A DNA stretch of 64,000 nucleotides, taken from the NCBI RefSeq assembly GCF_041886205.1, contig NZ_CP169030.1; one strand, written 5' to 3'. The DNA is from Escherichia coli. Its GTDB lineage: Bacteria; Pseudomonadota; Gammaproteobacteria; Enterobacterales; Enterobacteriaceae. How positions within the stretch are numbered: the stretch's first letter is position 1; every line of letters begins with the position of its first letter. The notes under the pieces were generated by a model, which saw only the letters and a list, made by a program, of their open reading frames with translations, was not told where the DNA came from and did not search any database. The position numbers and the translations under genes were made by a program. Below are positions 1 through 30,447 of the stretch, piece after piece.

Positions 1-2
1 CA

Positions 3-1004
3 GACTGGATCCCAGGTATCAGTGGACATAATGATGAATATCTGAATCTTTTTGAGCCCGTCAGTGAGGATTTTCGTCATATCCAGACGACCGGTAAACG
101 ACTCAGCAGCCTGACGCACTGGCGATATTATTTTGCCTTCTCCTCACCACAGAATGTTCTGCCACCTGAATTCTTCAGACAGCTTTTTGAACAGGCTGGC
201 GTATCGGAAAAACAGCAGCAGCTTTCTGAATTGCTGCTCTCAAAAATCAACAGTGTGGGCAGTCTGTCCGGAACCTGGTTTGAACATATACTGAGCAGAC
301 TGACTCCAGGCCTGATAAGAGAACGTAATTTCGAAGAGTGCGCAGGACTGGTTCATTTTTTCTTCGATCACACCGATGAGGTGAGCACTCGCTTCAGTAT
401 CCGTAACCCATGGTTTTCCCTGCGTGAAATGGCCATTAATGAGGTTGTACGGCATCTGCTGAAGCATATGCAGGATATTGATGAGACCAGAACGATCACG
501 CTTATGGAAAAACTGATCGTTACGGGTGCTTCGCCGTTCTGGATAGCCGATTTTATGCGGGATCTTATCTGGGAACATGGACTTGCTCAGAATGCAGTAC
601 CTTCGCCTTCAGACGCTCTTTTCAGTCGCGATATTACGGAACGGTTGCGTGACAGGTTTGCGGAACGTATGAATCAACCAGAACTTCAGCAACAGCTTCT
701 CCTGCGCAAGTCTCTTCTCGGGTATCTCTACGCCTGGAGAGACATGAGTTCAGGTGAAACCGTGAAGCAATGGGTCAGAGAAGTTACTACCACTGATGAA
801 GGCCTTGTTAACCTGTTGATACGATTACAGACCAGTGTCTTCAGCTCCCACCGAGGGGCATATCGCCGGATTGCGCGTGACCAGGTCAGTCCGTTCTTTG
901 ATGACTGGCCAGCAGTCGAAGAGAAGTTGAAGGTTATGCTGTCCGGCAACGAGCTGACTCCGGAGCAGGAAGCGCTCAAAACAGCGCTGGAAAATGACGA
1001 CTGA
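3..1004 (+). CDS. Hypothetical protein, 5'-truncated by window start (reading frame open from position 3; ORF track start at 231 is only the first in-frame Met)
   Basis: Frame stays open without stops from nt 3 to stop at 1004; no recognisable catalytic motif; convergent with TIR-like gene and separated by a hairpin terminator. Confidence 0.4.
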   Translation, partial: DWIPGISGHNDEYLNLFEPVSEDFRHIQTTGKRLSSLTHWRYYFAFSSPQNVLPPEFFRQLFEQAGVSEKQQQLSELLLSKINSVGSLSGTWFEHILSRLTPGLIRERNFEECAGLVHFFFDHTDEVSTRFSIRNPWFSLREMAINEVVRHLLKHMQDIDETRTITLMEKLIVTGASPFWIADFMRDLIWEHGLAQNAVPSPSDALFSRDITERLRDRFAERMNQPELQQQLLLRKSLLGYLYAWRDMSSGETVKQWVREVTTTDEGLVNLLIRLQTSVFSSHRGAYRRIARDQVSPFFDDWPAVEEKLKVMLSGNELTPEQEALKTALENDD

Positions 1005-1053: not shown

Positions 1054-1953
1054 TCAGGCGCTTAATGCTTTATCCTTGTCAAAAGGAACACCGGCATACG
1101 CAAGCTCACTCAGCAGTTTGCGTTTCCATCCACCATGCTCATCAAGCTCGGTATAGAGAACCCCGGCAAGATCTGAAGGGATTTCGATATCTCCCTTCCT
1201 GAGTACAAGTACTTTCCCGCGTCCAAGCTTCCCGGCGAAATATCCGAGCTCATACAGGACATTCTGGCGTGCGCGGAGACGTGTGCTTTCAGATGCCAGA
1301 GCACTGCCGCTATCGTCGGGCGTCATCAGCACGATGGCAAAACTGACATCCCCTGACTCTGCTTCAAATTTCTCGATAATCGTCCTGGAGCCGTCAGGAC
1401 GTTCTGAAAGAATGATTTCCTCAAGACCTATCCGGGATATAAAACGGGCAACAGACTGAAGGGCATCATTATCATGGCCATGAACAATAAAAATTTTTCG
1501 GGAAACCGGCCGAAACACTGCAGGCTCAGGATCGTGTTGGTTTTCCACATACAACTGGTAATCGCGCACGAACGGGGCAACTAATGACGACGTGAATTTT
1601 CGAATGGATTCAATAATGTTTCGATCATAGAAAAATGTATGACAGAAATTAAAGGAAAAATTGTTATCGTCTGCCATTTTCTCGATCAGCAGCAACTTCA
1701 GGCCCAAAATATCAGCGGGCTCATCAGGCCACTGTAGAACAGCGGAACCAGCCATGCTGGATTCAGTATCTTCACTCCTGGCCAGAAAGGTATCAAGTTC
1801 AACATTGCGGGTCAGATGTGCATTAACTGACTGCAGATTCTCTGAGTTCAAGAGCCGGGCCAATTGCTTAAGAGGTTGCTGATAGTTCTGAACGTCAGCG
1901 CGCTGAAGGTCGAATACGCAATTTTTAAGTGACTGAAAGATATCAATTGCCAT
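1054..1953 (-). CDS. TIR-like domain protein (COG4271/PF10137-type C-terminal domain) with uncharacterised N-terminal domain; candidate anti-phage effector
   Basis: C-terminal half contains KIFIVHGHD ... AIVLMTPDD ... RARQNVLYELGYFAGKLGRGKVLVL, matching the hallmark motif pattern of bacterial TIR-like nucleotide-binding domains seen in CBASS/Pycsar/Thoeris-type effectors; ~45 percent GC. Confidence 0.5.
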   Translation of the reverse strand: MAIDIFQSLKNCVFDLQRADVQNYQQPLKQLARLLNSENLQSVNAHLTRNVELDTFLARSEDTESSMAGSAVLQWPDEPADILGLKLLLIEKMADDNNFSFNFCHTFFYDRNIIESIRKFTSSLVAPFVRDYQLYVENQHDPEPAVFRPVSRKIFIVHGHDNDALQSVARFISRIGLEEIILSERPDGSRTIIEKFEAESGDVSFAIVLMTPDDSGSALASESTRLRARQNVLYELGYFAGKLGRGKVLVLRKGDIEIPSDLAGVLYTELDEHGGWKRKLLSELAYAGVPFDKDKALSA

Positions 1954-2233
1954 CCTGCCCGCTCTCCTGTCTTTGTTGTTCTGCTCTGTCCAGAATCTGT
2001 TGGCGCAGATTTTCTTTCATGTGTTCGATTAATGGGCTGACCATCGGATTAGTGGCATAACCAGAAGCGCGTTCGTACACCATGGAATAGGCTTCCTGAA
2101 TCGCGTTCTCAATGCTGACAGGATCGTTAGCATCGAAGTGGACATCATAACTTCCGTTTAATGCCTCTGTTGCTCTCTCAACCTCTTTTAGCTGTTTCTG
2201 CATTTTGTCTAAACCTGTGATTTTGACGCTCAT
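1943..2233 (-). CDS. Small hypothetical protein (96 aa), upstream gene of the TIR-like operon, 11-nt overlap with downstream gene
   Basis: ORF immediately upstream and overlapping the TIR-like gene on the same strand, suggesting translational coupling; no recognisable motif. Confidence 0.4.
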   Translation of the reverse strand: MSVKITGLDKMQKQLKEVERATEALNGSYDVHFDANDPVSIENAIQEAYSMVYERASGYATNPMVSPLIEHMKENLRQQILDRAEQQRQESGQDGN

Positions 2234-2528: not shown

Positions 2529-2759
2529 ATGAGAACCGTATCGATATTTAAAAATGGCAACAACCGCGCCATCCGTCTGCCTCGTGATCTGGATTTTGAG
2601 GGGGTGAGCGAGCTCGAGATCGTCCGGGAAGGGGACAGCATCATCCTGCGCCCCGTCCGGCCAACCTGGGGATCATTCCTAGAGTACGAAAAAGCCGATC
2701 CAGATTTTATGGCGGAGCGCGAGGATGTTGTCAGCGACGAAGGGCGATTTAACCTGTGA
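2529..2759 (+). CDS. vapB: VapB/VagC-type antitoxin (AbrB/SpoVT fold)
   Basis: 76 aa, N-terminal SpoVT/AbrB-like motif (RAIRLPRDL), stop overlaps start of PIN toxin gene. Confidence 0.8.
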   Translation: MRTVSIFKNGNNRAIRLPRDLDFEGVSELEIVREGDSIILRPVRPTWGSFLEYEKADPDFMAEREDVVSDEGRFNL

Positions 2760-3172
2760 ACAAGACTTATATGCTTGATACCTGTATCTGCTCGTTCATC
2801 ATGCGTGAACAGCCAGAAGCCGTCCTGAAGCGTCTGGAGCAGGCGGTGCTACGCGGCCACCGTATAGTGGTCTCGGCCATCACCTACTCTGAAATGCGCT
2901 TCGGGGCTACCGGCCCAAAGGCCTCACCACGTCACGTCCAACTGGTCGATGAATTCTGCGCCCGCCTCGATGCCATCCTGCCCTGGGATCGCGCCGCAGT
3001 AGACGCCACCACGAAGATTAAAGTGGCACTGCGGCTGGCCGGGACGCCGATCGGCCCGAACGACACGGCGATTGCCGGGCACGCCATCGCCGCCGGGGCG
3101 ATACTGGTAACGAATAATACAAGAGAATTTGAGCGAGTGCCTGACCTGGTGCTGGAAGACTGGGTGAAGTAA
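2756..3172 (+). CDS. vapC: VapC/VagD PIN-domain toxin
   Basis: 138 aa; MLDTCICSF N-terminus and C-terminal VTNNTREFERV motif typical of plasmid VapC/VagD PIN nucleases. Confidence 0.85.
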   Translation: MNKTYMLDTCICSFIMREQPEAVLKRLEQAVLRGHRIVVSAITYSEMRFGATGPKASPRHVQLVDEFCARLDAILPWDRAAVDATTKIKVALRLAGTPIGPNDTAIAGHAIAAGAILVTNNTREFERVPDLVLEDWVK

Positions 3173-3209
3173 GACACTCTTTTCAAAGTCAGGAGATAAG
3201 GGCACCAAG

Positions 3210-3235
3210 AAACAGCCCGTATACGGGCTGTTTTA
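3210..3235. terminator. Bidirectional terminator hairpin (AAACAGCCCG-TATA-CGGGCTGTTTT)
   Basis: Perfect inverted repeat flanked by A-run and T-run between convergent vapC and the RloC-like gene. Confidence 0.5.
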
Positions 3236-3333
3236 ACAGATATCTACAGTAAGCGGTCCTAAACTGTAGGGTATCTTCGAAGATCAGACTATCAGGGAGC
3301 TAAAGCCTATCTTCCGGCGGCAAAAACAGTGGC

Positions 3334-5472
3334 TCAAGCGATACGGGCAACCGAGCTCTGGTTTGCTGCCGGTGGCAGGGCGATGAGCTTGTCACATTCC
3401 ATAATCACGTACTCCGGGATGAGATCGAATCTGGACGGATCTAGTTGACAGATGAACTCATTTTCAATGTGGTACGTTTCGTTAACGAATTTTCGTATTA
3501 CCGGATGGTCCTGATCCAGTTCCAGTAAACGGAATACCTGCAGTTTTTCATAGCCGTTACGACAGCGACGGTACAGGTTTTTTATTTCATCTGGGCTGCT
3601 GACGAGAGCCTGAAGTCGCGGGTAATCAAAACTGTCCACATACTCCCGGATATCCCGCAAGGCCTGCTGAATTTTCTCAGGAGCCATTTTGGGATAGCCC
3701 GAGCCCGCAGCGGCAGGCTCGCGATAATCCAGCGGGACGACGCGTCGATGGAATAGATTGGATAGAAGCTGATAAGCATCACCACGTTCGTCAACGATTT
3801 CAAAGTAGCGACGAAGATAGATGAGCTTAATGATCTCCTCACAGTCTGCTGACGCGGTGATGGATTTGCAGATCTGCATGAATGTCATGATATCGCCGTC
3901 GTTAACAGGTAATTCTTCTATGACTCCAGCAGACAGGCGCAGGCAGGAGGCGGTCACCTGATTACTGAACAACCTTCTGACTGACTTCAGCGTGTCAATC
4001 ACAGGCTCCACGTCATGCGTCAGCATAAGTACAGTCCGGTTCTTCAGGCATTCACCACTTGCACGTCTGAACAGCATTTCAAGAATGGCAAACTTCTTGT
4101 TTTTATCAAAAGAAGATATGGGATCATCAAGGATAATCAGTCCCGGGTTTTTTGACAGGCATTCATACATGAATAACACAATCGCAAAGGCGTTCCGTTC
4201 TCCATAGCTGAGATGCTGGCTACCGCCGCTGACGTACCCGTCAAAATCTATGTGTCGTAGCCTGAGTTTTCTCTGCTCTCCCTCGCCGGCTATATCCACC
4301 CTGTATTTATAGCCTGCATAAGTGAGGAAATTATTGATGTTTGTTTTGTGCTGTGCGATCAGCCGGATCATGCTGTCCCGGTGCCGGTTAATTTTTCCCT
4401 GCAGCGGTCCGGCAAGGTTTATCAGGTCCATAAGGGCCGCGTTCAGTCTGTCGGTGATCCCCTGCATGAGTTCGGATTGCAGATCAGGGAAGAACTGCAG
4501 GTCAATCAACCTGGCAGTGAGCACCTCCCGAACGTTCTGCTGTTCCTGCAGGCTGAAAACATTCAGGCCTCTCAGCGCAGTGAGTTTCTCTGTCAGCGTA
4601 TCGGTCTGGCGTTTCAACGCCACTAGGTACTCGATATGTTCGGCTTCCGGACCGTTCTGAAGCATAGTAATGGCCAGAAGGCGTTCTCTGGCGCTCTCCG
4701 TCAGGTAATTACCGAGGTTTTCCACCAGTCTGATGATAGCGGTCAGGTTTTTAATGGTGGATTTATCGTATTCCTCTCTGACTTGGCGAATTTGTGCTTC
4801 CTTTCCCGTGATATCACCGGTACAGAACGGACAGCAGCCATCCGAAAGGGGCGAAAACTCGAGTCCCTTTGTCTGCCAGTCAATCCATTCCACGCGGCGT
4901 TCACTGCGGATGTAGGGTTGATAGTTCTCAAGACCAGCCGGAATGTGGTGTATTTTATTTCCGCCTGACAGACCTCTCATGCCGGTTGAAGAACGTGAAA
5001 TCCCGGAACTGGTTGATCTGAAAGCATTACTGAGTTCCTGTAGATGGTCTATCAGAGAGTTCAGCTCAGTGTGATCCGTGAAAACAGCCCGGATCTTTTG
5101 CGTCATTTCTTCTATTTCACGCTCTCTTTCCGCATGGGCTTGATTGCGGATAAGAATATTAAAGCTATCACTGATGAGCTCGTCCGGTTGGAACGTAAAC
5201 TGACTGACGTACTCCTCGTTGAAGCACATCACGTCCCCAATCCCGTCAGCACCGATGACAATGGGCCCGGTGCTATCGGGGTTTTCTCCGCGCAGCCGGA
5301 AGGGTATCAGTGCCTGTAGTCCCTGAATGTCGTCCCGCGCCGCACAGCTTATGGCCCGTGACAGCGTACTTTTTCCAGTACCATTTGGCGCAAACTTAAT
5401 GTTCAGTTTATCGGCAGTGAGGGTGATATGTGCTCGTACGATGTTATTGCAGTGGCGTATTTCAATGTCCAT
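3334..5472 (-). CDS. ABC-type ATPase with coiled-coil CxxC zinc hook and C-terminal domain; RloC/PrrC-like anticodon-nuclease candidate
   Basis: Walker A (FAPNGTGKST) at N-terminus, long predicted coiled-coil insert containing CPFC, Walker B/D-loop (LIILDDPISSFD) and H-loop (LMLTHD), then ~220-aa C-terminal domain with LRRYFE and H-containing motifs; architecture matches RloC. Confidence 0.5.
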   Translation of the reverse strand: MDIEIRHCNNIVRAHITLTADKLNIKFAPNGTGKSTLSRAISCAARDDIQGLQALIPFRLRGENPDSTGPIVIGADGIGDVMCFNEEYVSQFTFQPDELISDSFNILIRNQAHAEREREIEEMTQKIRAVFTDHTELNSLIDHLQELSNAFRSTSSGISRSSTGMRGLSGGNKIHHIPAGLENYQPYIRSERRVEWIDWQTKGLEFSPLSDGCCPFCTGDITGKEAQIRQVREEYDKSTIKNLTAIIRLVENLGNYLTESARERLLAITMLQNGPEAEHIEYLVALKRQTDTLTEKLTALRGLNVFSLQEQQNVREVLTARLIDLQFFPDLQSELMQGITDRLNAALMDLINLAGPLQGKINRHRDSMIRLIAQHKTNINNFLTYAGYKYRVDIAGEGEQRKLRLRHIDFDGYVSGGSQHLSYGERNAFAIVLFMYECLSKNPGLIILDDPISSFDKNKKFAILEMLFRRASGECLKNRTVLMLTHDVEPVIDTLKSVRRLFSNQVTASCLRLSAGVIEELPVNDGDIMTFMQICKSITASADCEEIIKLIYLRRYFEIVDERGDAYQLLSNLFHRRVVPLDYREPAAAGSGYPKMAPEKIQQALRDIREYVDSFDYPRLQALVSSPDEIKNLYRRCRNGYEKLQVFRLLELDQDHPVIRKFVNETYHIENEFICQLDPSRFDLIPEYVIMECDKLIALPPAANQSSVARIA

Positions 5473-5689
5473 TTATCTGTCCTTTGCCAGTTATTCCGGG
5501 GGGATTCATATCCTTCCGCAAAATGTGCCCGCATGCTGTGATGCAGATACATAATACATTTCGTTTATACCATTGCTTACACCTCTCCGAGGTGTTCATA
5601 TCAGAAACAAAGATTAGGTCGATCCGACTTAGCCGGAAACCGGATCTGCGCGGCAGAAAAGACGCAAATGATATGATAATTAAGAAATA

Positions 5690-5815
5690 TACATAAAATC
5701 ATATCAGATATGATTTTAATCATTAAAAATGAAACAATATCTGATATTATCAGAAATCAAAAGCACACAAATCATACATGATATGATTTTTACCTGTCAG
5801 AACATTATCAGATGG
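5690..5815. promoter_or_regulatory. AT-rich divergent promoter region with repeated inverted repeats (AAAATCATATC-a-GATATGATTTT and related)
   Basis: Perfect 11-bp arms at 5695-5717 and an imperfect copy at about 5769-5790, lying between the divergently oriented RloC-like gene and the 85-aa gene. Confidence 0.35.
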
Positions 5816-5825
5816 AGCGTGCAGG

Positions 5826-6083
5826 ATGGATCAGGAAATGACGTTTTCACTCAGCTATGAACAACTGACCCGGTTTGCGGAACGACGCATCCGGGAATGC
5901 AATCTGGACAGCCAGGGCGCGATTTATCTCTGCGAGTCAGCCAAAGCCGGAGCCGTGCTGATCTTCTGGCATGAACTGGCCATAAATGGCTATGCCTCAA
6001 TGAATGCCATAAAGAGACAGGAGCTCATTGACGCCGACTTTCAGCGCCTCAGAAAGCTCATCTGGCCGGAGGATGACAGGTAA
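5826..6083 (+). CDS. Hypothetical protein (85 aa), first gene of a translationally coupled pair
   Basis: ORF with stop overlapping the start of the next gene (TAATG); no recognisable motif. Confidence 0.4.
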   Translation: MDQEMTFSLSYEQLTRFAERRIRECNLDSQGAIYLCESAKAGAVLIFWHELAINGYASMNAIKRQELIDADFQRLRKLIWPEDDR

Positions 6084-6673
6084 TGACCCAGAGCCGCCGA
6101 CCGTCGCCACTGCAGCGGAGAGTGCTGATTGTGCTGGCTGCCCTTGATGAAAAACGGCCAGGACCCGTGCTGACGCGGGACATAGAACGGGTGCTGGAGC
6201 GAAGCGGGGAAGCCCCGGTCTACGGGCCAAACCTGCGCGCCTCCTGCCGTCGTCTGGAGGATGCCGGCTGGCTGCGTACCCTGCGCGCTCCGAACCTGCA
6301 GCTGGCAGTGGAGCTGACGGACGCCGGCCGGGCCGTGGCACAGCCTCTGCTGCTGGCAGAACAGGACCGCCTCCGGGCAGAACAGCGTGCGGCAGAAGTC
6401 GTCGTACTGCCGCTGGTCCCGGCAGCAGGTCTGCACGCAGACGGCACTTCTGCCACTGATCTGGCGGTGGAGCTGAACGGCATAACGTATCAGGCCTGCC
6501 GTGGGGATTTTGTGGTGCGTCTCGACGGCAGCACCTGTCTGCAGTTATGGAATAAAGAAGGCAGAGTGGTACGCCGGGAGGGCGATCCGCTGGAAGTGGC
6601 GCAGTGGCTGCAGGCCTGTCATGATGCCGGAATAGAAGTTCGTGTACAGGTTAATGAAAGCGTCACTCCGTAA
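6083..6673 (+). CDS. Putative winged-helix DNA-binding protein (196 aa), high GC
   Basis: N-terminal segment LQRRVLIVLAALDEKRPGPVLTRDIERVLERSG resembles a wHTH; about 65 percent GC, contrasting with the AT-rich upstream region. Confidence 0.4.
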   Translation: MTQSRRPSPLQRRVLIVLAALDEKRPGPVLTRDIERVLERSGEAPVYGPNLRASCRRLEDAGWLRTLRAPNLQLAVELTDAGRAVAQPLLLAEQDRLRAEQRAAEVVVLPLVPAAGLHADGTSATDLAVELNGITYQACRGDFVVRLDGSTCLQLWNKEGRVVRREGDPLEVAQWLQACHDAGIEVRVQVNESVTP

Positions 6674-8810: not shown

Positions 8811-9086
8811 CTACCTGTTTTCTCGTGTGTGCCACAGGCGCAATACATAAATAGTCTGGCCATTAAGTTCGTAACGGATTTCGTACTCGCCAGCAAAAAT
8901 CCGTCTGACCTCCCTGGGTTCAAACTGAAACAACTGTTCTCCCATACGTGGATGAGTTAACAGAATGACCGGTGCCTGTGTCAGGGATTGCACCGTTCTG
9001 GCGGCCGCAGGTTTACTGGCCAGCACCAGAAAATCATATAACCGCGCCAAATCAGAAAGCGCCTTACTGGTCCACTTCAGTTCCAT
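8811..9086 (-). CDS. RelE/ParE-family toxin
   Basis: 91 aa with typical RelE/ParE C-terminal signature; overlaps upstream antitoxin gene by 1 nt. Confidence 0.7.
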   Translation of the reverse strand: MELKWTSKALSDLARLYDFLVLASKPAAARTVQSLTQAPVILLTHPRMGEQLFQFEPREVRRIFAGEYEIRYELNGQTIYVLRLWHTRENR

Positions 9087-9370
9087 CAGCGTGGCACCGG
9101 TAACGGATTGTCAGTACTGAGGCTGTCCGCCCAGGCCTGTACAGCCTGATGGTCGATAACCTGTCCGGATGTCACATCGTCCAGGGCTTCCAGCGTCAGG
9201 CGATTACGCTCCTCCTCCTGGGCAAGCCATGCAGAAAGCGCCTGTTTGATAACCCAGCCCCGGGAGCGTTCCAGCCTGGCGGCCATCTGGTCGACTTTAT
9301 CAGCCATAGGTAATGGCACATGCGCGGTAATGACTTTTGTTGCTTGTGCACTATTGTTTTTCATTTGCAT
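9086..9370 (-). CDS. Antitoxin (RHH/ParD-like) of the RelE/ParE module
   Basis: 94-aa ORF immediately upstream of and overlapping the toxin gene. Confidence 0.6.
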   Translation of the reverse strand: MQMKNNSAQATKVITAHVPLPMADKVDQMAARLERSRGWVIKQALSAWLAQEEERNRLTLEALDDVTSGQVIDHQAVQAWADSLSTDNPLPVPR

Positions 9371-17031: not shown

Positions 17032-18045
17032 ATGAAAACCGCCACTGCGCCGTTACCACCGCTGCGTTCGGTCAAGGTTCTGGACCAGTTGCGTGAGCGC
17101 ATACGCTACTTGCATTACAGTTTACGAACCGAACAGGCTTATGTCCACTGGGTTCGTGCCTTCATCCGTTTCCACGGTGTGCGTCACCCGGCAACCTTGG
17201 GCAGCAGCGAAGTCGAGGCATTTCTGTCCTGGCTGGCGAACGAGCGCAAGGTTTCGGTCTCCACGCATCGTCAGGCATTGGCGGCCTTGCTGTTCTTCTA
17301 CGGCAAGGTGCTGTGCACGGATCTGCCCTGGCTTCAGGAGATCGGAAGACCTCGGCCGTCGCGGCGCTTGCCGGTGGTGCTGACCCCGGATGAAGTGGTT
17401 CGCATCCTCGGTTTTCTGGAAGGCGAGCATCGTTTGTTCGCCCAGCTTCTGTATGGAACGGGCATGCGGATCAGTGAGGGTTTGCAACTGCGGGTCAAGG
17501 ATCTGGATTTCGATCACGGCACGATCATCGTGCGGGAGGGCAAGGGCTCCAAGGATCGGGCCTTGATGTTACCCGAGAGCTTGGCACCCAGCCTGCGCGA
17601 GCAGCTGTCGCGTGCACGGGCATGGTGGCTGAAGGACCAGGCCGAGGGCCGCAGCGGCGTTGCGCTTCCCGACGCCCTTGAGCGGAAGTATCCGCGCGCC
17701 GGGCATTCCTGGCCGTGGTTCTGGGTTTTTGCGCAGCACACGCATTCGACCGATCCACGGAGCGGTGTCGTGCGTCGCCATCACATGTATGACCAGACCT
17801 TTCAGCGCGCCTTCAAACGTGCCGTAGAACAAGCAGGCATCACGAAGCCCGCCACACCGCACACCCTCCGCCACTCGTTCGCGACGGCCTTGCTCCGCAG
17901 CGGTTACGACATTCGAACCGTGCAGGATCTGCTCGGCCATTCCGACGTCTCTACGACGATGATTTACACGCATGTGCTGAAAGTTGGCGGTGCCGGAGTG
18001 CGCTCACCGCTTGATGCGCTGCCGCCCCTCACTAGTGAGAGGTAG
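17032..18045 (+). CDS. intI1: Class 1 integron integrase IntI1 (copy 1)
   Basis: 337-aa tyrosine recombinase [49 protein letters not shown]... Confidence 0.95.
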
Positions 18046-18968: not shown

Positions 18969-20888
18969 CTAAGTTATTTTATTGAACATATATCGTACTT
19001 TATCTATCCGACTATTTGGACGACGGGGCTGGCAAACAGGTTCACCGGTAGTAACATGGTACCCTTTTAACTCTGTTAAACAAACACTACGTCCATTTGT
19101 AAAGAAAGTTAAATCACTACGATATTCTTGAATACACCGAGCAGGGATTTCTCCACTAAGAATGACCTCATTATTTTTCAATTGAGTGTCTACGATGTTC
19201 GCACAATATTTAGGAGCATCGTTGTATGCTCGTGAAAGATATTCCTGTGGCGCATAAATTTTAAAACTAAGATATGGCTCTAACAATTCTGTTCCAGCTT
19301 TTTTTAAGACTTGTTCCAATACAATAGGAGCAAGCATCCGAAAATCTGCTGGGGTACTAACAGGGCTATAGTATAAGCCATACTTAAAACAGATTTTACA
19401 GTCCGTCACATTCCAACCATACAATCCTTGTTCACAGCCATAGCGTATCCCTTCCATAACTGCATTTTGAAATGATTGATTTAAGTATCCAAGAGAAACC
19501 GAGCTCTCATACTGCATTCCACTTCCCAACGGAAGCGGTGATACAGATAAACCAATGGAAGCCCAGAAAGGATTTGGCGGCACTTCGATGTGAATGGTAT
19601 ATTCTGCATTTTTTAACGGTCTCTCCATATAAATGACTGTAGGCTCTTTTAGTTCTATCTCCACATGATACTTTTCTTGCAACAGTGCACTAATCACTTC
19701 CATTTGTACTTTCCCTAAGAAAGAAAGTATAATTTCATGTGTCGTAGAATCCACGTAATATCGTAGAAGCGGATCACTATCTGAGATTTCCAAAAGGGCA
19801 TCAAGCAACATTTCTCTCTGTTCAGGTTTACTCGGTTCAACAGTTGTTTGTAGTAGAGGGTGCGGATTTTCAATCTTTTTTCTCTGTGGCAATAGTTTTG
19901 TATCTCCAAGAACACTATTTAACTTCAAAAACTCATTTTGCAAAATAACAATTTCCCCGGAATAAGCCTTATCGATTTTACATAATTCACCATTTATTGA
20001 AGTATACATTTCTGTAATTTTTATTTTTTCCTTTTCCGATATTCTAACCGAATCTCGCAAATGCAGTACGCCACTATAAAGACGTATATATGCAAGACGT
20101 TGTCTTTTTTTTGTATATTCAATTTTGAAAACATTTCCGCAAAGTTCAGACTGACCTCGATGTGTTGATGAATAAAATTTATTCGTAATCACTTCTATAA
20201 GGTTATCAATCCCTATATTGTTTTTTGCACTTCCATGATAAAGAGGGAACAGAGAACAATTCTGAAATCTTATGCTTTCCTCTTGTTCGAGTTCCAATGC
20301 TTCTAATGATTTACCGGACATATATTTCTCTAAAAGGTCATCGTTTCCCTCTATTACCGTATCCCATTGTTCAGATTCGGTAAAGTTCGTCACACACATA
20401 TTAGGATACAGTTCTACCTTCTGTTTGATTACAATTTCGGCAGAAAGTTTCTCTTTAATATCCTGATAAACCGTTGATAAATCAATTCCATTTTGGTCAA
20501 TCTTATTGATAAAAAAGATTGTGGGAATCCCCATTTTCCTAAGTGCATGAAATAATATACGAGTTTGTGCTTGTACGCCATCTTTTGCAGAAATCAGTAG
20601 AATTGCCCCATCTAAAACTGATAATGAACGATATACTTCTGCTAAGAAATCCATATGTCCTGGCGTGTCTATGATGTTCACCTTCGTATTTTCCCACTGA
20701 AAAGAGGTTATTCCTGTCTGAATTGTAATTCCTCTCTGACGTTCTAAAAGCGTATTATCCGTCCTCGTTGTACCTTTGTCCACGCTTCCTAATTCTGTAA
20801 TCGCTCCACTGTTATATAATAAGCTTTCTGTTAAGGTAGTTTTTCCCGCATCAACATGAGCTAAAACTCCAATATTAATAATTTTCAT
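18969..20888 (-). CDS. tet(M): Tetracycline resistance ribosomal protection protein Tet(M)
   Basis: 639 aa starting [30 protein letters not shown] (translational GTPase motifs); the ORF-track frame begins 5 codons upstream. Confidence 0.95.
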
Positions 20889-20903
20889 GTGATTTTCCTC
20901 CAT

Positions 20904-21247: not shown

Positions 21248-22261
21248 ATGAAAACCGCCACTGCGCCGTTACCACCGCTGCGTTCGGTCAAGGTTCTGGA
21301 CCAGTTGCGTGAGCGCATACGCTACTTGCATTACAGCTTACGAACCGAACAGGCTTATGTCCACTGGGTTCGTGCCTTCATCCGTTTCCACGGTGTGCGT
21401 CACCCGGCAACCTTGGGCAGCAGCGAAGTCGAGGCATTTCTGTCCTGGCTGGCGAACGAGCGCAAGGTTTCGGTCTCCACGCATCGTCAGGCATTGGCGG
21501 CCTTGCTGTTCTTCTACGGCAAGGTGCTGTGCACGGATCTGCCCTGGCTTCAGGAGATCGGAAGACCTCGGCCGTCGCGGCGCTTGCCGGTGGTGCTGAC
21601 CCCGGATGAAGTGGTTCGCATCCTCGGTTTTCTGGAAGGCGAGCATCGTTTGTTCGCCCAGCTTCTGTATGGAACGGGCATGCGGATCAGTGAGGGTTTG
21701 CAACTGCGGGTCAAGGATCTGGATTTCGATCACGGCACGATCATCGTGCGGGAGGGCAAGGGCTCCAAGGATCGGGCCTTGATGTTACCCGAGAGCTTGG
21801 CACCCAGCCTGCGCGAGCAGCTGTCGCGTGCACGGGCATGGTGGCTGAAGGACCAGGCCGAGGGCCGCAGCGGCGTTGCGCTTCCCGACGCCCTTGAGCG
21901 GAAGTATCCGCGCGCCGGGCATTCCTGGCCGTGGTTCTGGGTTTTTGCGCAGCACACGCATTCGACCGATCCACGGAGCGGTGTCGTGCGTCGCCATCAC
22001 ATGTATGACCAGACCTTTCAGCGCGCCTTCAAACGTGCCGTAGAACAAGCAGGCATCACGAAGCCCGCCACACCGCACACCCTCCGCCACTCGTTCGCGA
22101 CGGCCTTGCTCCGCAGCGGTTACGACATTCGAACCGTGCAGGATCTGCTCGGCCATTCCGACGTCTCTACGACGATGATTTACACGCATGTGCTGAAAGT
22201 TGGCGGTGCCGGAGTGCGCTCACCGCTTGATGCGCTGCCGCCCCTCACTAGTGAGAGGTAG
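21248..22261 (+). CDS. intI1: Class 1 integron integrase IntI1 (copy 2, identical protein)
   Basis: Identical 337-aa translation to copy 1; one silent nucleotide difference noted. Confidence 0.95.
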
Positions 22262-26567: not shown

Positions 26568-27863
26568 TCAGAGCTTATTCTCTGCTGTCTGATAGCCACG
26601 GCTGAGACGAACAAACAGCATTGCCGTTGCGGCGAGTCCGCATAGCGCCGCGCACATGAGCCACCACCCCGGAGAACTCTTATCGCCGGTCAACTGGACC
26701 AATGCGGTGGAGATAGCAGGCGTCAGGCCGCCGAAAATCGCAGTCGCAAGACTAAAGGCCAGCGAAAAACCCACGGTTCGGACATAAACCGGCATCACTT
26801 CGGTCAGGGCCGCCACCATCGCACCGTTATACATGCCAAAAAAGAACGAGAACCAGAGCAGCACCAACGTCATGCGGGTGAAGTCAGGGGCAGCGGTAAG
26901 CCAGTTCATCACCGGCCAGGTGGTGACGAGGGCGAGCAAGGTGATGCCCATCAGCACCGGGCGTCGCCCGATCCGATCAGAGATAGCGCCGCCAATCGGC
27001 AGCCAGATGAAGTTAGAAATCCCTACCAGCATGGTGACAACCAGGCTGTCACGTGCGCTCAGGTTCAACACCGTTCTCCCGTAAGTGGGGGTATAGACAG
27101 TAATAAAATAAAAGGTCGTGGTCGTCATCGCTACCAGCAGGGTACCCGCGGTGATGATGCGCCAGTTTTTAGCAATGGTGGTAAAAATTTCCCGGGTGTC
27201 CGGACGGTGTTTACGTTGTAAAAAGGCTTCAGTTTCCTGTAGCGAACGTCGAAGAACAAAAATCAGCGGAATAATCATGCAGCCAATGAAGAACGGGATT
27301 CGCCAACCCCATTCGGAGATTTCATCGTGTCCCAGCGTGACATTCAGACCGTAGCCGATCAGCGCGGCGACGACAATCGCCACCTGCTGGCTGGCCGATT
27401 GCCAACTGGTGTAAAAGCCTTTATTGCCTGGTGTAGCGATCTCAGAAAGATAAACAGAGACGCCGCCCAGTTCGACGCCAGCAGAAAATCCCTGTAGCAG
27501 ACGCCCCACCAGGACCAGCACGGGAGCCAGCAGGCCGATAGTCTGATAACCCGGCACGAGGGCGATGAGCAGCGTGCCGCAGCCCATAATCGCCAGGGTG
27601 ACCATCAGCCCTTTCCGTCGGCCGATTCTGTCGATATATGCGCCCAACACCACGGCCCCGATAGGGCGCATTAAAAATCCGGAGCCAAAAACGGCAAAAG
27701 TAAGCATTAATGCGGCAAACTCACTTTCGGCAGGAAAAAACGTCTTTGCGATATAAGTGGCGTAAAAACCAAACAGGAAAAAATCGAACTGTTCGAGAAA
27801 ATTACCGCTGGTCACACGCAGTATTGCGCCGAACGTGCCAGCGCGCGATGGTTGTTGAGTCAT
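26568..27863 (-). CDS. tcuC: TcuC-like MFS transporter (tricarballylate/citrate uptake)
   Basis: 431-aa 12-TM MFS protein immediately downstream of tcuB. Confidence 0.7.
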
Positions 27864-27917
27864 TGAAGTTGCTCCACTGTCTTATCAGAATTATGTATAG
27901 AGGTAAGAGTTTGCGGG

Positions 27918-29057
27918 TTAGTCGCCTGAGACCCCCGCCTGTTTTCCACGTCGCTTCTCAATCGCCCATTTGAGTAAAGACGCGCAGCGGTAAAATCCGT
28001 GGGCAAATTTTCCGTATGGAATGGTCAAAAAAAGCGCCATGACCACGCCAAGATGGATGGCAAGCAGGATCCCCATCCATGAGGTGTCTCTTCCCGCCAG
28101 CAAACCTATACCGGTCAGGCTGGTCAGGAGCAGCAGTAAAATAAAACCGCGATCCATCGGTTTCTGTCGCGCGTCGCCATGCAGTGGCGAGCGCTTAAGG
28201 TTTAACCACAGCAGGCCTGCCGGGCCGACAATTAAACCGATTCCTCCGAGCGTGCCAAGCATGACCGGCACGCTGAAGAACGGGTAGGGGGCTTCCCAAC
28301 CGGCGAAGTAGTGGTAACCCGTCGCCACCACGGTCGCGGCGAAACAGAGCATAAAGCCGTAGAAGGTGAAATGGTGGAAACGACGACGCATCAATGTGAA
28401 AGCATCGTCCGCCTCGTTGCAGCCTTTGCCATGACCGCCGTCGAGGTATTTCAGCGTCAGCGCGTTGTGCGACGCTTCGGCAATTTCCGCCGGACGCGGC
28501 CCGACGTGAGAGATCTCGCGCCAGAAGCGGATCACCCCTGCCATTAGTAAACCGATCGCCAGCATGAAAACCGATCCAAACATCCATGCCAGCAGGTTGT
28601 GCGGGAAGATTTGGTAGAAATCACCGGCCAGCGGCGGATGGAGTAGCGATCCCTTCATCCCCATCGCGAGGAGTAAAAAGAGGATCAGACTAAAGACCAG
28701 TGCCAGCGTCACGGTGACGCCAGCCTGGCGATACAGCGCCCCGAAGGCCGCCGGTTGCGCGTAGTGTTGATACGTTTCCAGACGCACTTCCGCCATTGCT
28801 TTCGGCACGTTAATCGCAAACTCATGGGGTGGAGCATACTGGCAGGCGTGCAGGCAGGCGCCGCAGTTATGGCACAGGTTTGCCAGATAGTTAATGTCGG
28901 CTTTGCCAAATTCCAGTCGCTGAGTCATCGCCGGGAACACGGCGCAAAACCCTTCGCAATAGCGACAGGCATTACACACCTGCATCACCCGCTCGACTTC
29001 AGCTTCTGGCTCGGTGAGAATTTTGGCCTCGATGATCAGTTTTTCAAGCTGCTTCAT
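27918..29057 (-). CDS. tcuB: TcuB membrane iron-sulfur protein
   Basis: N-terminal [11 protein letters not shown] and [11 protein letters not shown] cysteine clusters followed by TM segments; probable start MKQLEKL, ORF-track frame extends 27 codons upstream. Confidence 0.75.
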
Positions 29058-30447
29058 GATGCGCCTCCTTACGTGCTGCCTGCGCGGCTTCTTTACCTGC
29101 GATGCGACCAAACGTGGTGCCGATGGACATGCCGACACCGGCGGTATAGCCCTTGCCCAGTACGTTGCCAGCCATCATCTCACCGGCAACGAACAGGTTA
29201 CGGCTGGGGGTGCCTGCGAAGTGAACCGCAGCGTGTTCATTCACTTTCAGTCCCAGGTAGGTAAAGGTGATCCCCGGTCGCAGGGCATAACCGTAGTAAG
29301 GGGGCGTATTAATAGGCCGCGCCCAGTGCGTTTTCGGTGGCGTCAGGCCCTGAGTCGCGCAGTTATCCAGCTTCGTGTGATCAAACTGACCCGGCTGACA
29401 GGCCTGATTGTAGTGCTCCACGGTATGGGTAAAGCGTTCGGGATCCAGCCCCAACTGGCGGGCCAGTTCACTCAGCGTATTGGCCTGTGCGCCGGGGAAA
29501 ACCGGCGGCATAAAGTGACCGATCGCTTTGCTGTCGATAATGGAGTAGCCAATCTGCCCCGGCTGTTGGGCAACCAGACGCCCCCAGATGGCATAGCGTT
29601 TCGGCCAGAAATCTTCGCCTTCATCGTAAAAGCGCTCCGCGTCCCGGTTGACTACCACACCCAGTGAGACGCAATCCACGCGGGTACAAATGCCGCCGTC
29701 GTACAACGGAGCCCGGGCATCAATCGCCACACAGTGGGACTGAGACGGATCGCCGATAATGTCAGCACCGGCATCGATCATAAACTTGAGCAAGACGCCC
29801 TGATTAAAGCGGGTGCCGCGAATGAGGAAGTTATCGGCTGGCCATTCGCCACGAGCGTTCTCTCCCCAGGCGTCGCGCAGCCATTCGCGGTTGGATTCAA
29901 ATCCACCGGCGGCGAGTACGCAGGCTTTCGCCTCAATGCGCTCGTGGCCTGCCAGGGCTGCGATGAATTCGCCGTTGTGCAATTCAAGTGCCTGTACCGG
30001 CGTGTTGTAGCGAATCTGTACCCCCAGCTTTTCTGCGCTGCGGTAATAGGCGTTCACGAGGGCTTTACCGCCGCCCATGAAGAAGGCATTGGTACGCGCC
30101 ACGTGCAGCGCGCCAGAGAGCGGAGGCTGAAAATTAACGCCGTGATGACGCATCCAGTCGCGACACTGGGAAGAGGTCCGGATCACCAGTCGCGCCAACG
30201 CTTCATTGGTATTGCCTTCGGTGACACGCCAGAGATCCTGCCAGAACTCCTCTTCGGGATAACTCTCGACCAGCACATCCTGTGGCGCATCGTGCATACA
30301 GCGTAAATTGCGCGTGTGTTGGGAATTCCCGCCGCGCCATTCCCGGGGCGCAGCCTCTAACAGCAGCACGGAAGCTCCTGCCTCACGGGCGGTTAAGGCG
30401 GCACATAACGCGGCATTACCACCGCCAATCACCAGTACATCAACCAT
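29044..30447 (-). CDS. tcuA: TcuA FAD-dependent tricarballylate dehydrogenase
   Basis: 467 aa, N-terminal dinucleotide-binding motif [17 protein letters not shown]. Confidence 0.8.

Follow-up and report, generated by a model that had tools for sequence, protein, structure and literature searches.

A plasmid-borne 712-residue RloC-like ABC ATPase of Escherichia coli is probably an abortive-infection RNase with a family-specific C-terminal domain

RloC (Geobacillus kaustophilus/Acinetobacter baylyi) is defined as a protein of 658–897 amino acids (aa) in which an ABC ATPase is split by a CxxC-bearing insert and which carries a C-proximal Arg-X3-Glu-X36-52-His triad (PMC2610378; Davidov & Kaufmann 2008). 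In EcoPrrC, mutagenesis has identified R320, N321, E324, R349, N352 and H356 as essential (PMC3025547), and HEPN is the fold class assigned to the nuclease domains of both PrrC and RloC (PMC3710099). Here we analyze a 712-aa protein encoded at 3334..5472 on the minus strand of a 64,000-nucleotide stretch of Escherichia coli DNA (contig NZ_CP169030.1; hereafter the window). By analogy with these systems, the protein is probably an abortive-infection RNase, and the evidence tips slightly toward a single-polypeptide RloC-like abortive-infection enzyme that belongs to a distinct and widespread subfamily. What is new is an effector domain distinct from those of PrrC and RloC; the architecture itself will not surprise a specialist.

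The first-pass annotation of the window, made from the sequence alone, had placed a 712-aa open reading frame (ORF) at 3334-5472, and both coordinates and length proved exact. The complete ORF begins with ATG, and a Shine-Dalgarno-like AAGGA (5483..5487, minus strand; reverse complement tcctt) can be read 10 nt 5′ of this start. The product is WP_000350638, for which "AAA family ATPase" is the only annotation in plasmid R64. PADLOC flags it as candidate PDC-S06 (model PDLC04889; protein residues 1-698 against model positions 1-688 of 693, E = 8.5e-286), so the protein is not unknown; another AAA-ATPase that PADLOC calls PDC-S06, WP_032269946.1, was regarded as a likely true positive in a language-model paper. 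A word-indexed search returned more than 3,600 homologs, and 337 cluster representatives with E < 1e-30, among 1.84 billion searched, aligned over residues 1-697 down to 28% identity. These representatives are essentially all ∼700 aa long, the listed relatives spanning ∼680-770 aa. Conservation was assessed in 123 full-length relatives with 28-54% identity. All of the motifs listed by the first-pass annotation were found in the translation and are conserved across this set, and the motif set is far beyond chance. Specifically, the Walker A, A28-PNGTGKS-T36 (5365-5391, minus strand, as are all features of the protein), retains N30, G31, G33, K34 and T36 each in at least 90% of the relatives, and the same level of conservation was observed for the ABC signature L421-SYGER (4195-4212), the Walker B and D-loop L445-IILDDPISSFD456 (LIILDDPISSFD; 4105-4140) and the H-loop residue H486 (4015-4017).

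The ATPase head comprises an N-terminal lobe (residues 1-110; 5143..5472) and a C-terminal lobe (residues 391-530; 3883..4302). Pfam AAA_13 covers both lobes, at residues 21-137 and 418-489, and no other Pfam match was credible; a PAS match (residues 67-123, E = 0.002) was judged spurious because it lies inside the ATPase lobe. ABC-domain sequences in the PDB matched residues 405-497, and a PDB sequence search with the full-length protein returned matches only to the region of the ABC signature and Walker B. For the AlphaFold model of the whole protein the predicted local distance difference test (pLDDT) score is 81, with values of 84-93 for residues 1-90. The top Foldseek matches of this model were Rad50, SMC heads, RecN, RecF and AriA, those to the Rad50, SMC and RecN heads covering both lobes. 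Thus modelled, the head folds like Rad50/SMC/RecN.

Residues 111-390 (4303..5142) form a helical insert that splits the head. The first-pass annotation had described a long coiled-coil insert with CPFC. The helical character and the CxxC at the apex were borne out, but the long coiled coil was not: in the AlphaFold2 (AF2) model the helices span residues 111-131, 135-150, 225-301 and 334-386, and helices both short and long are predicted to pack into a bundle that does not resemble the long coiled coil of Rad50. The Cys-rich apex reads G-C213-C214-P-F-C217. C214, P215 and C217 are invariant in alignment A1, and CP[FY]C is found in 117 of the 123 relatives; W196, W199 and G203, N-terminal of the hook, are also conserved. 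The apex itself is modelled at low confidence (pLDDT ∼53). Given the near-invariant CxxC and the RloC precedent, C214-P-F-C217 (4822..4833) can reasonably be inferred to be a zinc hook.

The C-terminal domain (residues 531-700; 3373..3882) is all-alpha and family specific, and we consider it a putative RNase effector with a remote HEPN-like core. Two motifs stand out. Motif I, R554-R555-Y-F-E558 (3799..3813), has the Arg at position 554 in 123/123 relatives, and position 558 is Glu in 115/123 and Asp in 7/123, which supplies the acidic residue that HEPN domains have upstream of their catalytic motif. Motif II, K661-F-V-N664-E-T666-Y-H668-I-E670-N671 (3460..3492), has K661 in 114, N664 in 80 (plus 34 with Asp), H668 in all 123, E670 in 112 and N671 in 119. 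H668 is the sole invariant His; H575 (+16 from the Glu) is a His in only 92/123. Taken together, the invariant R, E, K, R, K, E, H, E and N of the domain form an active-site-like pattern that persists down to 28% identity. A domain-only model built from 55 diverse sequences reached a pLDDT of 91.4 and a predicted template modelling score of 0.87. Among the 50 matches listed by Foldseek for this model against AFDB50, only family members appeared; by fold enrichment the domain appears HEPN-like, HEPN RNases being its closest structural neighbours in the modelling. Inserts as long as ∼60 aa are reportedly tolerated in HEPN families, and variant families that have the His but not the motif Arg are documented.

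Single-sequence and profile searches of Pfam, NCBIfam and the PDB with the C-terminal domain gave no match. Within PADLOC the domain matches solely its own model, PDLC04889, and neither the other 12 PDC-S06 models nor PrrC; Pfam AAA_13 and the PADLOC PrrC model both stop short of it. Set beside PrrC (...LLRNLYE...SRIINFTSH...), the family (...YLRRYFE...RKFVNETYH...) offers R554, R555, E558, K661, N664 and H668 as positional look-alikes of the essential PrrC residues, an equivalence that is without statistical support. The domain is therefore PrrC-like by the shape of its motifs as read, and its homology to the PrrC nuclease is not demonstrated. Among the findings that the first-pass annotation had named as adverse to its RloC/PrrC assignment was a C-terminal domain dissimilar to the PrrC nuclease domain that matched another effector class instead. 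Only the first half of this was obtained: similarity to the nuclease domain of PrrC did not reach statistical support, but no other effector class matched the domain either.

Relatives of the protein are encoded by at least 450 species-representative genomes from many phyla. To describe their context, we sampled 80 loci from such genomes and annotated the neighbours with hidden Markov models (HMMs) seeded from the restriction-modification (R-M) genes of individually inspected loci. A type I or type III R-M gene lies within 5 kb in 24/80 loci (30%), and in 14 of the 47 loci whose flanks both extend to 4 kb or more. The R-M matches are co-oriented with the gene in 59 of 61 cases, 14 of them within 100 bp, and genes for RhuM, Fic or AlbA_2 stand alongside in 16 loci. 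Individual examples are a Kiritimatiellae homolog inside hsdM-hsdS-[X]-AlbA_2-hsdR and a metagenomic homolog inside hsdM-hsdS-[X]-RhuM-hsdR-Fic, with a 4-nt overlap; one homolog directly follows a Mod/Res pair, and others stand alone beside nSTAND3, TIR or kinase-helicase genes. These contexts match those described for ABC-HEPN proteins in R-M operons with RhuM/Fic-Doc (PMC3710099). The prr logic of R-M embedding nevertheless holds for a minority of the relatives, as ∼70% are solitary, with no R-M gene within 5 kb. The copy in the window is among the latter: as the first-pass annotation had noted, no R-M gene adjoins it, and indeed no Hsd, Mod or Res homolog was found anywhere in the 64-kb window.

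In E. coli the gene is intact in 543 of 5,426 complete genomes, where 749 of its 762 places are on plasmids, and ∼650 plasmids in PLSDB carry it in full. Approximately 180 complete E. coli genomes hold only partial copies. Among the truncated alleles, a 544-aa form (P0008, a Klebsiella variicola cluster with 896 member sequences) is missing the first 172 residues, Walker A included. Such N-terminally truncated alleles, which circulate widely, are presumably inactive.

A mechanism can be proposed by analogy with PrrC and RloC. In uninfected cells the ATPase and hook would hold the C-terminal RNase off. A phage-linked cue would then alter the nucleotide or dimer state of the head; candidate cues are restriction that is lost or inhibited (for instance by anti-restriction proteins), damaged DNA or its ends, and a protein of the phage. 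A pair of C-terminal domains may join into an active, metal-independent RNase site in which H668 would be catalytic and R554, K661 and R648 would contact the phosphate. The enzyme would cut tRNA or another translation RNA, leading to translation arrest and abortion of the infection, and the plasmid-bearing population would be protected. A tRNA anticodon target is the least certain step of this scheme.

Several findings weigh against an abortive-infection RNase. The HMM libraries of Pfam, NCBIfam and, apart from model PDLC04889, PADLOC (at E ≤ 10) fail to reach the C-terminal domain. The comparison with PrrC was made with genuine prrC genes recovered from metagenomes by means of the published LARP peptide (28 unique PrrCs, 59-96% identity); a homolog search for diverse PrrC/RloC nuclease domains added only fragments at ≥67% identity and retrieved no canonical RloC. 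When the domain was aligned with 148 PrrC nuclease domains by hhalign, P was 0.16-0.21, and the best score, 13.5, compares with 12.4 ± 2.3 for column-shuffled decoys, 7 of 30 of which equalled it. Nothing significant emerged whether the full domain was used, the insert was taken out or its boundaries were scanned; hhalign does align motif I to PrrC LLRNLYE, although without overall significance. In addition, the canonical HEPN R-x4-6-H is replaced by K661-x6-H668, in which K661 is followed by Phe and not by the HEPN polar residue and position 661 is Arg in only 2/123 relatives, and the R349K mutant of PrrC is inactive (PMC3025547). No relative was found by tblastn in sequenced phage genomes. 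The frequency of N-terminally truncated alleles would be expected if the gene were toxic, but equally if it were dispensable. Finally, the literature consulted on PDC-S06 yielded no experimental test of the 712-aa protein or of PDC-S06.

Were the protein a true RloC ortholog, it would excise the wobble nucleotide from tRNA under zinc/DNA regulation, and the long motif spacing would be a mere helical insertion. The same domain order, the CxxC insert, a size within range and membership of AAA_13 speak for this, as do motif shapes parallel to those of PrrC, the R-M linkage, which fits the idea of a restriction-linked ORF, and the size of the inserts reported in HEPN families. The spacing, however, is 99-129 where the R-x3-E-x36-52-H triad allows 36-52, the similarity to the PrrC nuclease-domain profile is not significant, and the AAA_13 model, which covers PrrC/RloC-type proteins, ends at residue 489. 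The JGI annotation likewise names the family a generic ABC-transporter, but gives two PrrC nuclease-domain fragments the name "wobble nucleotide-excising tRNase". We rate RloC orthology low because the defining triad spacing was tested and was not found. The first-pass reading as an RloC-type protein stands in part. Its domain order is right, with a split ABC head, a CxxC insert and a C-terminal domain, here of ∼180 aa, and the AAA_13 family was recovered as well; the triad spacing and a profile similarity to the PrrC domain were not, and the 712-aa protein is not a demonstrable RloC member. The main rival to an RNase is a DNA sensor of the SMC/Rad50 type in which the C-terminal domain has no catalytic role and serves as an adaptor, for example to dock an R-M complex or another effector, with killing left to an unlinked partner. 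This, too, appears unlikely, if a little less so than RloC orthology: ∼70% of loci are without an R-M gene within 5 kb and there is no constant partner gene, the gene on the plasmid is monocistronic, bounded by a terminator on one side and a divergent promoter on the other, and the invariant residues of the C-terminal domain are typical of an active site.

A role outside defence, in which the protein would serve plasmid housekeeping through conjugation, partition or maintenance, has in its favour that the gene occurs in E. coli almost only on conjugative plasmids; the Pfam description of AAA_13 also mentions conjugative-transfer proteins. Yet most IncI/IncF plasmids with the same flanking ydfA region do not carry the gene, and its slot is occupied there by other defence genes. 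In addition, its relatives, found in many phyla, are chromosomal and R-M-linked, and N-terminally truncated alleles persist widely. We regard such a role as very improbable. A further possibility, which we hold more tentatively than the RloC-like enzyme favoured above, is that the family is an ancient clade in its own right, made up of ABC-nuclease guards linked to restriction. A non-canonical HEPN-like RNase would serve as its effector, built around a Lys-x6-His site and distant invariant Arg residues, and enterobacterial conjugative plasmids would have captured the module in solitary form. The trigger could then be DNA damage, or host restriction lost or inhibited in trans (by anti-restriction proteins, for instance), and neither the target nor the chemistry need be that of PrrC and RloC.

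The first ∼7 kb of the window are 99% identical to the backbone of the Salmonella plasmid R64 (IncI1), and the rest carries F-type tra genes; the plasmid that carries this copy of the gene is therefore an F-like conjugative one. From the start of the window, the gene order is pifA (its C-terminal part), the TIR-like candidate PDC-S35 and a partner of 96 aa, vapBC, the 712-aa gene and the divergent ydfA-ydeA. PifA, the T7 exclusion protein of F/R64, runs off the start of the window (1-1004, plus strand), where its C-terminal ∼257 aa remain (PADLOC PifA, E = 2.6e-75, profile positions 469-718 of 720). The TIR-like protein of 299 aa (1054-2233, minus strand) matches PADLOC candidate PDC-S35 with E = 2.3e-65 and, weakly, Cap12/TIR effectors; its start overlaps the end of the 96-aa ORF, and the two resemble a second candidate defence pair adjoining the 712-aa gene. 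The type II toxin-antitoxin genes vapB and vapC (2529-3172, plus strand) are convergent with the 712-aa gene. As the VapC toxin is a tRNA(fMet)-specific endonuclease, a tRNA-cutting toxin sits beside a putative tRNA-cutting defence gene.

On the other side lie ydfA (85 aa) and ydeA (196 aa), at 5826-6673; YdeA gives a weak hint of an AbiEi-type winged helix-turn-helix (AbiEi_4, E = 0.057). In R64 this operon runs on into ibfA; in the window ibfA is absent from that position, and the sequence runs into colicin-immunity remnants and IS903B. We rejected ibfA as the identity of the 712-aa gene, as ibfA is a 518-aa ATPase-TOPRIM gene two genes away in R64. The "Delta" region of R64 is historically the part of IncI1 that changes phage type, and pifA and ibfA are its only characterised phage-inhibition genes; no functional statement on the 712-aa gene of R64 was found in the literature. 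On other IncI plasmids (NZ_CP080150.1, NZ_CP038347.1) a cluster with a HEPN-family nuclease or a gene for a DUF4238 protein occupies this slot opposite ydfA, with SIR2 and DUF87 nearby. The slot with its differing defence cargo is therefore a variable defence hotspot, and the data suggest that cargo is swapped in beside, and may be controlled from, a single divergent promoter region that is conserved.

Between the convergent vapC and 712-aa genes lies a GC-rich hairpin common to both, ACAGCCCG-TATA-CGGGCTGT followed by TTCTT (3207-3235), which has the form of a bidirectional intrinsic terminator. The RNA fold of 3173-3336 has a free energy of −50.3 kcal/mol and a z of −3.2, in agreement with the terminator that the first-pass annotation had placed beside the gene. 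Upstream of the gene, where that annotation had noted an AT-rich, operator-rich promoter region, three palindromic sites of ∼19 nt are indeed present (5696-5714, 5732-5750 and 5769-5787, within 5694..5790; consensus about AAATCATATCAGATATGAT). They are 36-37 bp apart in a region with a GC content of 0.42, lie in front of ydfA and overlap divergent promoter-like hexamers, on the plus strand at 5723-5750 toward ydfA and on the minus strand at 5800-5771 toward the 712-aa gene. What did not hold is the assignment of this region to the 712-aa gene, as it travels with the ydfA operon: ∼2,400 plasmids without the 712-aa gene retain the interval ∼5632-5900, and a published analysis puts the ydfA promoter in that interval. 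The operators therefore belong to the ydfA-ydeA(-ibfA) module, and control of the 712-aa gene by these palindromes is unproven.

Elsewhere in the window, two 337-aa class 1 integron integrase ORFs with identical scores (17032-18045 and 21248-22261, plus strand) flank a tet(M) ribosomal-protection gene (18969-20903, minus strand), an arrangement unusual for an enterobacterial plasmid. A 525-aa PAS-domain methyl-accepting chemotaxis protein (CtpM/Aer2-like) is encoded on the plasmid at 9756-11333 (minus strand), adjoining a Tn402-type tni module and a pair of ORFs of 91 and 94 aa (8811-9370) that look toxin-antitoxin-like by translation only. Genes for tricarballylate utilisation, tcuC and tcuA by NCBIfam, are located at 26568-30447 (minus strand); the 406-aa ORF between them (27918-29138) is a candidate tcuB by position, and Tn3-family and IS66 transposases flank the cluster.

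Approximately 10% of the complete E. coli genomes carry the gene intact, nearly always on conjugative plasmids of the resistance or virulence type, and in R64 it lies between the classical phage-exclusion genes pifA and ibfA. If the protein is an abortive-infection RNase, phage resistance and phage-type conversion in E. coli and Salmonella would have in it a common cause that has been overlooked, which matters for the typing of strains by phages and for phage therapy. It would also extend the PrrC/RloC idea of a "guard of restriction" to a much larger family, ∼30% of it R-M-embedded, and give mechanistic studies a second version of ABC-to-HEPN coupling, independent in sequence, to compare. As a single-gene candidate that is prevalent on clinical plasmids, it is cleanly testable.

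Among described systems, PrrC shares with the 712-aa protein the Pfam family AAA_13, a similar Walker B/D-loop (IDDPVSSLD in PrrC, LDDPISSFD here) and the motif shapes LR[NR]xxE and [RK]-h-h-N-x-T-x-H, with EcoPrrC R320-N321-L-Y-E324 resembling motif I and R349-I-I-N352-F-T-S-H356 resembling motif II; relatives of the 712-aa protein also occupy the hsdM-hsdS-[X]-hsdR position. PrrC differs, however, in being a protein of ∼400 aa without insert or hook, whereas the 712-aa protein has an insert of 280 aa. The distance between motifs I and II is 31 in PrrC and 99-129 in the 712-aa family, Lys661 stands where PrrC strictly needs Arg, and neither the LARP tRNA-recognition peptide KYGDSNKSFSY nor His295/His315 is present. 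PrrC is, moreover, always R-M linked, in a type Ic hsd locus that silences it, unlike the copy in the window. The likeness to RloC as published is greater: both are single polypeptides with an ABC head split by a CxxC helical insert and a C-terminal all-alpha domain, in the 712-aa protein a putative effector, with R-x3-E and an essential-looking His, 712 aa falls inside the RloC size range, and the genes lie sometimes in type I/III R-M loci and are often solitary. The differences are the Glu-to-His spacing (median 109), a Lys rather than Arg as the basic residue of motif II, a C-terminal domain without detected HMM or profile similarity, and R-M linkage of ∼30% versus the 8/72 reported for RloC.

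The other PDC-S06 sub-models are, like the present one, AAA_13-type single-gene candidates enriched in defence islands, but those 12 models match the ATPase only. PDC-S46 of Ralstonia shares the start of the C-terminal region and the motifs R-N-x2-E, SLLH and ENIHLN. A member of this sister candidate family, 722 aa long, is encoded on the Ralstonia solanacearum megaplasmid (L008 3753-5921), directly after a gene for a NERD+UvrD helicase. Published validation of the PDC-S06 sub-models or of PDC-S46 was not found in the literature. DARNA, a recent tRNA-cutting HEPN system, was rejected as a match on account of its different architecture. Rad50/SbcC and SMC proteins have the same head fold with an insert between the lobes and an apical CxxC. 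The insert of the 712-aa protein, in contrast, comprises ∼280 aa of mixed helices and not a long antiparallel coiled coil, no Mre11/SbcD partner gene accompanies it (the neighbours are vapBC and ydfA), and it has an extra C-terminal domain, the putative effector. PARIS AriA/AriB, OLD and R64 IbfA/HEC-04 likewise couple an ABC ATPase sensor to a nuclease that stops translation, and AriA is among the Foldseek matches. In those systems the nucleases are TOPRIM proteins, separate or fused, whereas the 712-aa protein carries a predicted all-alpha, HEPN-like domain.

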